In this document: positions 11,583 through 14,785 of the stretch, piece by piece
How positions within the stretch are numbered: the stretch's first letter is position 1
How the letters are laid out: each line of letters starts with the position of its first letter
Assembly: GCA_008632985.1 (NCBI GenBank)
Contig: QPGO01000202.1
Span: 111,691-131,690 of the forward strand
Source: Psammoneis japonica
Taxonomy: Eukaryota
Direction: 5' to 3'
DNA length: 20,000 nucleotides
Program-made: the position numbers and the translations under genes
The notes under the pieces: generated by a model
Seen by the model: only the letters and a program-made list of their open reading frames with translations
Told to the model about the DNA's origin: nothing
The model's database searches: none

Positions 11583-14500
11583 TCAGTCGTTAAACGGCAT
11601 TATTCGACGAACATTGACAGTGTCAATAACGTTACCGCGTTTGATCTGTACTGTGCCATTAGTATGTACCGTTGTTATTACATACGGTCCAACATAGGGC
11701 TGTTCTAATTTTTGCGAGTCTTTCTCGAGTAGTATCTTTTCTCCTACTCTGTACGTGTAAGGAGTACGTCGAGCATTCTCTCGAGCGTTATTTTTATTTA
11801 TGATTTCTTGTTTTCGCTGCTGGATTAATTTCCAGTCCGCGACATGTTGGACGTTAAATATCATGTCTCTATTGAAGACTAGTTGTCCTGGTGTAGATTG
11901 CGTAGTAGCATGATACGTAGAACGTACTGCAAACGCTACCGCTGATAGTGTTCCAGCGAAAGGATCCTCAGTATCTAGAGGTGTATGTTGCAAATCAAAT
12001 GTATGGAGCATGTTCCCCAGCACTTGATGTACGCGTTCAACAATTGCGTTTGCTTGTGGATTTCGTGTGGTTGTAGGCTTGACTTTAATGCCATGACCAT
12101 CTTGCACCATTTCTCTAAATTGGTGTCCGATGAACTCACTTCCACGGTCACATGTAATTGACGATGGCCAAGGATGTCCACTTGGCCATGTTCGTTCTAA
12201 CAGTCCAGCCACAGTTGTGGACTCCTTGTTTGGGATTTCCACAACTTCAAACCATCCGGTTGCTGGATCGATCGCAGTTGAACATTTCAGGACTGGGGGT
12301 TTTTCCTTTCCCTTGCGACGCACTTTGTATGGCCCAACAAGGTCCACACACAGTCGTTCCCATGGTGCGGATTCTGCGCACTTGGGAGGTAAATGTCCAC
12401 ATTTCTTGTGTTTCTTTTTGAATTTTTGGCACGTCTCACATCTCGACACGTGTTTTCGTATGTCTTCACGTGAGGTGGACCACCGTGGGTGTTGTGAGAT
12501 TGTTTCTTCTGTTCGATTTATGCCAGGGTGAAGAAGGTGCGCATGATGCCAATCCATCACTGCCTTTTGCAATGTCCTCGGGACGACAATTTCATCCTTG
12601 TGACATGTGAGCAACCGGTCTCGCTCGCCTCCACGAAAAGTCTTCGTATGAAACGTCTTGTTTGACAATTGGGAGAGAATGTCTTTGTCCCATTTTTGTT
12701 CACAATCAAGAACTTTGCAATTTAACGGAAAGACATTGTCGCAGGATTTTGGTGGGGACCTTTTCAGCTGGCTCTTCTGTGCTGAGGGTTTCCATGGGTT
12801 CTATTTTCTTCATGGCAAGTCGGCCAATCGTGTCTGCGACAATGTTTGCCTTGCCCTCAAGGCATGTCATTTTGGGACTGCACTCTTCTGTCATTAGACG
12901 CCAATGCATGACTCTGTCCGTTGTGAAATTTTTGTGTGTGAGATTTTTGTGATCCGCACGCATGTTTGTCTGTTGGCCAAACAGTGTGTTGCGGAACTCT
13001 TTTAACGTCTCCACTGTGGACAACAGCTCTTTTTCCGTTGCAGCACAACGCGTCTGCGCTCCATTCAGCTTGCGGCTGTAGAAGGCAATTGGTCGGTTTT
13101 TCTGAGCAATGACCGCCCCCAATTTGAGAATTGCTGGCATCGGCACACATCTCAAAGGGGATGTTAAAATTCGGGTGTGACAATGGCATGTCTTTGGAGA
13201 TGATGCGCTTCATGTTTTCGAAGGCTTTTTGTTCTGTTTCGGTCCATTGCCACTTTGCTTGGGTAGAAGTGAGTTTGGCTAAAGGAGCTAAAACATGAGA
13301 TCGTCGAGGCCACATGTCTCGACAGTGGTTGATCATGCCGATAAAGCGTCGCAATTCCTTGCGAGTTTTAGGAGTTGCGATCGCGTGAATCGCTTCTACT
13401 TTTTTTGGAATCGGACTGATGCCCTTGCGGGTGATGTGAAAGCCCAGATAGTCTGCTTCGGGTTTAGCGAAAAAGGACTTCTCGGCGTTGACCTTCAATC
13501 CGGCTTGTTCCAGGCGTAAGAACACCGTTTCAAGCTTCTTGAGGTGGTCTTGAAAATCACTTTTTGTAAGACACAATGTGTCGTCAACATAAGTTCTGAC
13601 GAACTCCAGACCTGCCATGAGCTCACTCATGTGCTCTTGGAAAATATCTGGAGCTCCACAGATTCCCATCGGGAGTCTACAGTGCTCACATTTGCCCCAA
13701 GGCATGACGATCGTGCACAAGCAACGTGCATGCGGCGTCAATTCGATGTGATAGCATCCCATGTTTAAATCTAGGGACGTTGCATGCATGAAGCCTTCAA
13801 GCTTCTGTGGCATGTCCTGAACATTGGGTGGAGGAAACGGAGTGCGAATTAACCTCTCACTTAGCTCACGAAAGTCGGATGAGAACCGAACTCTGCCATT
13901 TTTCTTGGGTTGAACAAAGGTTGGAGCCGCCCATTCAGAACAATTTATTTTTCTTGAGACTTTCAACTTGCACAGTCTTTCAACCTCCTTACGAGCAGTT
14001 GCCTCCAAGGCTTGTGGTGCGGGAAATGGTTTGGCATGACACGGACTCACGCCCGATTTCAACTTTAAATCCACCGGTTTCCCGGTCCATTTGCCTGGAG
14101 AACCATCGAAAAGGTTTTCAAATCTTTTTAAGAGGAAGTTCAGCTGCTTCTGCTCTTCAGGAGTTAGATGAGCAGCTGCTGCGGTCACATTGTTGAGGTT
14201 TGCAGCGTGATGGTCTGAGTCAAGGATCCGATTGACCCTGTCATTAAGACCAATCACTGCATGAGATTCCTCAATGTGATCGGCAATCAACTTGAAAACA
14301 TCGGCATCGAAGAGTGCATCAACATTCTTCACAGGAGTGGTTGCATCTTCCCATTTAATCTCTTCATTCGAGAAGTCCAATGTTGTCCCAAGACTTGACA
14401 TTAAGTCGCGTCCCATGATCATGTCACAATGACTCGAAGAAGAAGGGGAGTTGTCAACATGTGCCGTTGTTTCAATCATCTTGTGTTTGTCAAATTCGGG

Positions 14501-14785
14501 CAAGGAGAATTGGATCTTACATCGACTGTCAGTCGTGAAGAGCCCTCCTTTGGTTTCCCAGAGTTTGGTGGCGGATGCTTTTGTTCTGAGTTTCCGCGTG
14601 AATTTGCGCAAAATTATGGTTGACGATGTTCCGCCATCGAGGAGAACGCACAGAGGCTTATTTTTCGCCTTGCCTGATGAAGTGTTCATGTGGGCGACAA
14701 CTGCTGGACTAGTGTGAATTACTTTGGCCCTTTTTCTGGGCTTCCTAACATCCAGCAGAGCACAAGACTCCTCTTGCGGTGCAAG
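11583..14785 (-). pseudogene. pol: pol: aspartic protease, reverse transcriptase, RNase H, integrase with GPY/F motif; two frameshifts (about 13123 and about 12760)
   Basis: PR LLDGGTS; RT SLDLNMGCYHI, RLPMG, YVDD; RH CADAS, PIAFYSRKL, EKELL, DHKNL; IN HHCC (HAHLLHPG..CETC), DDE (VDLVGP, DRGSEF, NAIVERVH), QPYVGPY. No chromodomain; stop at 11583. Confidence 0.95.

Follow-up and report, generated by a model that had tools for sequence, protein, structure and literature searches.

Conserved protein columns, a pair of long terminal repeats (LTRs) and base composition together make it very probable that a Ty3/Gypsy retrotransposon on contig QPGO01000202.1 (assembly GCA_008632985.1) was inserted into mutationally saturated DNA and has been hypermutated at TpA dinucleotides since its integration, with a signature like that described in Bigelowiella natans. 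The element lies at positions 11178-16354 of the window, by which we mean the whole stretch of 20,000 nucleotides analysed here (111,691 to 131,690 of the contig). In its DNA the rate of change at TpA is far above that of all other substitutions; the changes run in one direction, are restricted to TpA, fall on both strands alike and postdate integration. We propose that the element entered DNA already mutated to saturation, and that the resident copy would then have been altered only at the A:T pairs of 5'-TA-3', which would become G:C (TA>TG or TA>CA), on both strands equally and more than a hundredfold faster than by other substitutions, with CpG almost untouched on this time scale. Under this scheme the element would have been killed by missense changes: Tyr>Cys/His, Leu>Pro/Ser, Ile>Thr/Met/Val and, in the protease, DSG>DGG. 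Its features are as follows.

11178-16354, minus strand: complete Ty3/Gypsy LTR retrotransposon, with LTR pair, target duplication, gag, and protease, reverse transcriptase, RNase H and integrase
15976-16354, minus strand: 5' LTR, 379 bp, TG...CA ends, heavily TpA-mutated by LTR comparison
11178-11556, minus strand: 3' LTR, 379 bp, TG...CA ends, lightly mutated by LTR comparison
16355-16358, minus strand: TGTC target-site duplication, upstream copy
11174-11177, minus strand: TGTC target-site duplication, downstream copy
14786-15939, minus strand: gag, with its ATG at 15939 and one frame break near 15397
15068-15109, minus strand: CCHC zinc knuckle of gag, CILCEKSTHNTDKC, a C-x2-C-x4-H-x4-C pattern read from the sequence
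11583-14785, minus strand: pol, split by frame breaks into three segments (from 14785 to about 13123, on to about 12754, and on to 11583)
14638-14630, minus strand: protease DGG, aligned with the D(S/T)G column of relatives
13433-13909, minus strand: RVT_1 (Pfam)
about 12775-13246, minus strand: RNase H, RT_RNaseH_2 (Pfam)
12414-12584, minus strand: Integrase_H2C2 (Pfam)
12057-12368, minus strand: rve (Pfam)
12041-16354, strand not assigned: heavily TpA-mutated part of the element
11178-12040, strand not assigned: nearly spared tract, comprising the 3' LTR, the polypurine tract and the integrase C-terminus

The two LTRs are in direct orientation and identical at 351 of 380 aligned columns, and a polypurine stretch read from the sequence, GGGAGGCGAA, precedes the 3' LTR. 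The pol domains follow the order protease, reverse transcriptase, RNase H, integrase, as in Ty3/Gypsy elements (Metaviridae), and the three pol segments jointly align with positions 27 to 1077 of a profile of relatives that is 1078 positions long. A domain search of the window's proteins gave no Pfam match for gag, and a tRNA scan of the window found none. The TGA that ends gag (14786-14788, minus strand) is in frame with pol; it may be a stop subject to read-through or else a secondary mutation. Three frame breaks of one base each interrupt the element (about 13123, 12754/12755 and 15397), all at short homopolymers; they are either private indels or consensus errors of the assembly. The element lies inside DNA of extreme composition, and a 28S rRNA gene has its 3' end about 2.3 kb away.

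The direction of change was read from the conserved columns of pol. Of 8000 proteins scored against a 642-amino-acid pol segment as query, 861 matched at E<=0.001, and the best 120 of them had 47-60% identity; 90 of these 120, each at least 1000 amino acids long, make up the profile to which the three window segments were aligned, and a column was counted as conserved where at least 80% of the relatives share one residue (n=483). Window pol deviates at 101 of these columns. A single TpA>TpG or TpA>CpA step explains 41 of the 101 replacements, 39 of them above coordinate 12050; the remaining classes are CpG transitions (5), the CA>TA type (1), other transitions (9), transversions (22) and replacements needing more than one step (23). 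The TpA share is 23/38 at columns at least 95% conserved and 8/12 at those at least 99% conserved. Set against opportunity, for the columns above 12050, nonsynonymous A>G or T>C changes took up 37.2 of 89.2 opportunities at TpA and 2 of 323 elsewhere (odds ratio 114, Fisher p 1e-25), an enrichment that a preliminary description of this DNA had named beforehand as a check on its proposal. Outside TpA, A>G occurred at 2 of 177 opportunities, and CpG transitions (4/76.5) were not significantly more frequent than other C/G transitions (5.3/256.8). Tyrosine is often replaced: 16 of 22 conserved Tyr columns are altered (8 to His, 7 to Cys, 1 to Phe), compared with 0/35 for Pro, 2/32 for Gly and 1/20 for Phe. 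At these 22 columns the window has 15 Tyr>Cys/His changes and the 90 relatives have a mean of 0.26 (maximum 3), a control with some circularity, as the same relatives served to define the columns.

The residues replaced are Tyr, Leu, Ile, Thr, Lys and Ser, present in up to 90/90 relatives, and at most of the TpA-type columns the window's residue is seen in 0/90; relatives in general do not carry what the window has there. All the peptide motifs that it quoted are encoded on the minus strand where it had placed them, and most hold as damaged consensus motifs. At the columns it took for lost tyrosines, relatives carry Y in 71/90 and 77/90 for WGKCEHCRLPMG (13664-13699), 74/90 and 88/90 for FMHATSLDLNMGCYH, 88/90 and 89/90 for MINHCRDMW, 86/90 for PCHAKPFP, 90/90 for WHHAH and 70/90 for KCGHLP; in GHPWP they carry R (86/90) and Y (89/90). 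Leucine is the residue of relatives at the column cited for GSPGKW (90/90) and for TWPS (75/90). The protease reading DSG>DGG, from GAT GGC at 14638-14633, likewise agrees with relatives, which have D in 89/89 followed by S (75/89) or T (13/89); the AGC>GGC change is preceded by T and is one TpA>TpG step. Three of the proposed ancestral residues find no backing in the relatives: the column of the C of ITCDRGSEF is variable (M 38, F 24, Y 14), at the first S of RFSSDF the relatives have I in 78/90 and L in only 7/90, and at the C of EMCADAS they have H in 76/90 and Y in 14/90. As for the further claim that TA is ancestral and TG and CA derived, it is supported by the residues of relatives at conserved columns and by the normal composition of the TA-rich 3' tract. 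Inactivation by missense rather than nonsense changes is borne out as well, and it is a necessary consequence of the changes themselves: neither TA>TG nor TA>CA can turn a sense codon into TAA, TAG or TGA, while TAA and TAG are done away with. The three pol segments have no internal stop.

The LTR pair dates the process. The two LTRs of a retrotransposon are identical at integration, as a consequence of reverse transcription; since they differ now, the changes arose in resident DNA, and fixation of edited RNA or cDNA is therefore excluded as their main source. Differences are found at 29 of 380 columns, and 26 of the 29 are of the TA against TG/CA type: 18 have TA in the 3' LTR and TG or CA in the 5' LTR, 2 have the reverse, and 6 columns make up 3 sites at which one LTR has CA and its partner TG. 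The others are one CpG site and two further T>C differences, so that non-TpA differences number 3 over 380 columns. The 5' LTR has lost 21, and the 3' LTR 5, of at least 31 TA sites inferred for the ancestor; 3 of the 5 sites changed in the 3' LTR are also changed in the 5' LTR, with another outcome. CpG sites, by comparison, are common to both LTRs in 24 of 25 cases. Both strands have been struck. The coding-strand TpA events of pol comprise 25 A>G and 16 T>C, and their order along pol forms 21 runs where 20.5 are expected, which means that there are no one-strand tracts and that the two strands were hit independently.

Base composition differs between the parts of the window. The element body (12011-16354, 4344 nt) has 72 TA, an observed/expected ratio (o/e) of 0.25, and 218 CG (0.89), with TG at 1.28 and CA at 1.46; the 3' end (11480-12010, 531 nt) has 55 TA (1.15) and 31 CG (1.49), with TG at 1.03 and CA at 1.08. 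The old flanks (3250-11176 and 16355-17700, 9274 nt) retain only 20 TA (0.03) and 74 CG (0.14), with TG at 1.78 and CA at 1.91, and window 1-3249 has a TA o/e of 0.14 and a CG o/e of 0.78. CpG is thus lost only in the oldest DNA, which points to a second, slower process. The transition within the element is sharp: TA density is 10-15 per 100 bp at 11500-12000 and falls abruptly to 0-4 per 100 bp near 12040, and at or below 12050 only 2 TpA-type replacements occur among 63 conserved columns. Since the TA-rich 3' tract has normal composition, an open frame and its conserved tyrosines, it is the unmutated part of the element and not the product of a process resembling repeat-induced point mutation (RIP).

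The survival of TA sites depends on the flanking bases. We counted the A of each strand of a surviving TA site with its 3' neighbour as one half-site, and the more mutated the DNA, the larger is the share of TAA among the halves: it is 19% for the spared tract (11178-12040), 42% for the body, 49% for an older copy (1-3249) and 57% for the old flanks (spared tract against body, chi-square p 4e-5); the share in 28S-proximal DNA is 26%. ATAT, ATAC and GTAC are the most depleted contexts and TTAA the least. In the non-coding 5' LTR, 2 of 8 sites with a TAA half were mutated and 16 of 20 others (p 0.011; 3 double sites excluded). These data give a lead that RTAY (R, purine; Y, pyrimidine) is the most sensitive context and TTAA the most resistant. 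A preference for TAY at the level of the strand was also considered and is ruled out: at 24 asymmetric sites the edited A stood 12 times in TAY and 12 times in TAR, so that, on these small numbers, the context effect belongs to the site and not to the strand.

The window was further compared with k-mer assembly contigs of one sequencing run, X1, in which 52% of 881 sampled window words are present. Among the runs listed as containing the window's words none was of RNA, an outcome without bearing on expression. Over window 1-18650 there are 9142 such contigs. In the TA-free flanks they depart from the window by 1-8 letters per 320-611 bases, and word depth sums to 7,000-12,000 on the element, compared with 60-190 per flank contig; the high depth on the element indicates that the family is multi-copy. 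Over the same range the window and the X1 contigs differ by 1134 transitions and 247 transversions. The 40 best-supported of 1388 differences, at which no X1 contig has the window's letter, are 15 CpG-type, 4 TpA-type and 21 other; as an unrepresentative subset they were left out of the mutation spectrum, for which only the totals were used.

A process of this kind has been described by Mettrop et al. in mutation-accumulation lines of the marine alga B. natans, where 231 of 302 new nuclear mutations fell in integrated nucleocytoplasmic large DNA virus (NCLDV) and virophage sequences (bioRxiv 10.64898/2026.01.13.699255). According to the preprint, 230 of these 231 were A>G or T>C, all on TpA, and the rate in the inserts was about 6e-7 against 3.5e-10 elsewhere, around 1000 times background. 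It further reports 124 genomic clusters of windows poor in TpA and rich in CpA+TpG, an enrichment of reverse transcriptase and DDE Pfams among TpA-poor coding sequences, and an ADAT2-like deaminase as candidate (bioRxiv 10.64898/2026.01.13.699255). The likeness is close: only A>G and T>C, only at TpA, on both strands and far above background, aimed at foreign or selfish DNA and leaving long-term TpA depletion with an excess of CpA+TpG. Our results support the view that the present locus records the same TpA process on an LTR retrotransposon. It differs from the B. natans case in that the target is a multi-copy Ty3/Gypsy element beside ribosomal DNA (rDNA) and the timing comes from an LTR pair; here the oldest DNA has also lost CpG, one tract of the element is spared and survival depends on the flanking bases. 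The main text of the preprint (10.64898/2026.01.13.699255) contains nothing on CpG, LTRs, Gypsy elements, retrotransposons or a context wider than TpA, points on which its supplements may bear. A literature search found no report of a TpA hypermutation signature besides that preprint, and a search for Bigelowiella Gypsy elements gave nothing relevant.

The process is also reminiscent of RIP in Neurospora and other fungi, which acts on DNA after integration, makes dinucleotide-specific transitions on both strands and ruins repeated selfish DNA; the unaffected state of the adjacent rRNA gene is a further likeness. The chemistry is the opposite. RIP converts C:G to T:A at CpA, creating TA and stops, whereas here A:T is converted to G:C at TpA, which removes TA and never makes stops; accordingly, the body has a TA o/e of 0.25 and the flanks one of 0.03, a single CA>TA replacement stands against 41 of TpA type, and the pol segments are stop-free. 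The preprint's viral insert, being single-copy, argues against a RIP-like dependence on duplication. Decay of CpG through cytosine methylation also ends in TG and CA, and it fits the CpG o/e of 0.14 in the old flanks; it is not the main process in the element, which has kept 24 of 25 LTR CpG sites and shows just 5 CpG-type replacements at conserved columns.

Several observations weigh against hypermutation of the resident element as proposed here. Sixty of the 101 replacements at conserved columns are not of the TpA kind, and the ancestral states rest on relatives of 47-60% identity together with the LTR pair: a search with a 200-amino-acid reverse transcriptase segment gave no copy of the same family among the best 120 of 538 matches (maximum identity 73%), and a metagenome scan likewise gave none, with one locus at 59%. 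The score of rve is not lowered (39.1 bits against 28-34 in six relatives); that of RVT_1 is, at 60.3 bits in the window against 77.8-93.7 in six relatives, and Integrase_H2C2 scores 50.8 against 46-65 in relatives. Run X1, whose library type is not on record, is possibly the window's own sample and is not proven to be independent. Finally, the spared tract of about 860 bp could mean that gene conversion or chimeric assembly has supplied the 3' end from a different member of this family of about 40 copies, in which case the LTR clock would lose force.

This last point leads to the alternative that survives best, although it concerns the boundary alone and we regard it as rather unlikely: gene conversion, unequal recombination or chimeric assembly would have brought in the 3' tract from a different and younger copy, and the tract would owe its state to this rather than to local shielding from the mutator. 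The multi-copy state of the family, as judged from word depth, and the abruptness of the change in TA density near 12040 speak for it; the matching 4-bp target duplication speaks against it, as do the 5 changed sites of the 3' LTR itself, 3 of them common with the 5' LTR but with another outcome. For the boundary of 11178-12040, the data do not discriminate between patchy aiming of the mutator, gene conversion and chimeric assembly.

An origin before integration is much less probable still. Here an ADAR- or ADAT-like deaminase would have edited the RNA (A>G), the minus-strand cDNA (T>C) or both during retrotransposition, and the copy would have integrated in its edited form. Animals are known to have edited retroelement copies, reportedly including LTR elements edited by APOBEC. 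Like the changes seen here, ADAR hyper-editing and APOBEC editing leave clustered deaminase transitions in retroelement copies, and the 5'-U preference of ADARs and of ADAT/TadA enzymes, taken up in the discussion of the preprint, would suit TpA. However, ADAR and APOBEC editing takes place on RNA or cDNA ahead of integration, leaves its mark on one strand only and keeps the LTRs identical, none of which is true of the element: T>C makes up 16 of 41 events, with A>G and T>C randomly intermixed along pol, and the LTRs, although copied from one template and enclosed by a single TGTC duplication, differ at 26 TpA-type columns out of 29, with losses of 21 against 5. The rarity of A>G outside TpA (2/177) is stricter than the preference of ADARs, and flanks that are not retroelement are TA-free too.

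A sequencing artefact, in which a long-read base-caller would miscall modified bases of silent chromatin (such as N6-methyladenine or 5-hydroxymethyluracil at TpA, 5-methylcytosine at CpG) and put TG or CA into the assembly in place of true TA or CG, appears highly improbable. In its favour, the X1 platform is not on record, and the three frame breaks fall at homopolymers where X1 contigs differ by one base in length, which is typical of long-read consensus error. Nevertheless, the X1 k-mer contigs, each with a word depth of 100-190, match the TA-free flanks nearly letter for letter; miscalls at symmetric sites should yield TG, CA and CG, yet CG o/e is 0.14; and Illumina-based mutation-accumulation data show the same changes arising in B. 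natans (bioRxiv 10.64898/2026.01.13.699255). The reverse direction, with a TA-rich 3' tract RIP-mutated from CpA/TpG to TpA and the TA-poor remainder original, can draw on the TA-rich DNA that fungal RIP yields and on one His>Tyr replacement in the tract (column at 11759), but it is already refuted by the normal composition (TA 1.15, TG 1.03, CA 1.08) and stop-free open frame of the tract, the TA o/e of 0.25 in the remainder, the 15 conserved tyrosines that are Cys or His in the TA-poor part and absent as such from relatives, and the lack in the pol segments of the stops that RIP would create.

Hypermutation of the resident element at TpA therefore remains our preferred reading, and it probably serves as a defence against selfish DNA. 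In chemical terms, the likeliest basis is an ADAT2/TadA-like enzyme that deaminates adenine in DNA, in line with the proposal of the preprint, while the sequence is also compatible with thymine oxidation at TpA. More tentatively, and as a possibility rather than an expectation, the observations may be joined into a general genome defence, RIP-like and chemically opposite to RIP, that would inactivate integrated LTR retrotransposons; it would read a duplex site (RTAY first, TTAA last, either strand equally) and be delivered to bounded domains, here with an edge near 12040, and jointly with CpG decay it would drive silent DNA to a state without TA and without CG. If such a defence is general and the window is not from Bigelowiella, the system would be taxonomically widespread. 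TpA-aimed A:T>G:C hypermutation is the mirror image of fungal RIP, and its published record, going by the literature searched, dates from 2026 and covers one organism and its viral inserts. To this the locus adds a retrotransposon target whose LTR pair is an internal clock, showing action on resident DNA; an end state of DNA without TA or CG and with hardly any TAA or TAG stops; and a flanking-base effect together with a sharp boundary between spared and mutated DNA, which can be used for questions on the aiming of the mutator and on the enzyme. As such DNA carries long false open reading frames (ORFs), and its transposon proteins are hidden from domain searches, annotation pipelines will mislabel it.

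The surroundings of the element comprise the following features.

3250-11173, no strand: old saturated flank, almost without TA or CpG, TG and CA nearly doubled
16359-17700, no strand: old saturated flank on the other side, same composition
468-2317, minus strand: fragmentary second copy of a related Gypsy element, matching 12619-15052 at 71-82%
18657-20000, minus strand: eukaryotic 28S rRNA gene, 3' part (Rfam LSU_rRNA_eukarya, 857 bits, model 1994-3401)

The second copy at 468-2317 consists of six short profile matches with internal deletions and is more strongly TA-depleted than the element. In the old flanks, none of 26 long ORFs matches a Pfam family above its cut-off. The saturated flank has a weak zf-CCHC match (E 0.006), CWKCNKVGHVRGDC, at 16556-16996 (minus strand), and the target of the Gypsy insertion may have been an older retroelement that is fully degraded. 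The plus strand of the old flanks has 10 TAA and 8 TAG against 207 TGA, and many overlapping ORFs of 110-331 codons are found there on both strands; these long ORFs are probably false ones that gene finders would call.

The 28S part contains two N-masked stretches (19101-19195 and 19261-19359). The 28S gene and the DNA right next to it have normal TA and CG, and TA-free DNA begins about 0.4-0.9 kb past the 3' end of the gene; thus, hypermutation has spared the rDNA itself, highly repeated though it is. Downstream of the 28S gene, 17081-17271 and 17431-17747 hold purine-rich direct sub-repeats, 94-95% identical with a spacing of 350-476, as in rDNA spacers; none of their 11 differences is a site of the TA against TG/CA type, because no TA remains. 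A second pair of direct repeats, 2873-3242 and 4081-4451, is 81-82% identical with a spacing of about 1208. Of its 73 differences, 18 are doubles with CA in one repeat and TG in the other, and 17 set CG against TG or CA, which fits independent decay of the two repeats from TA and CG sites.

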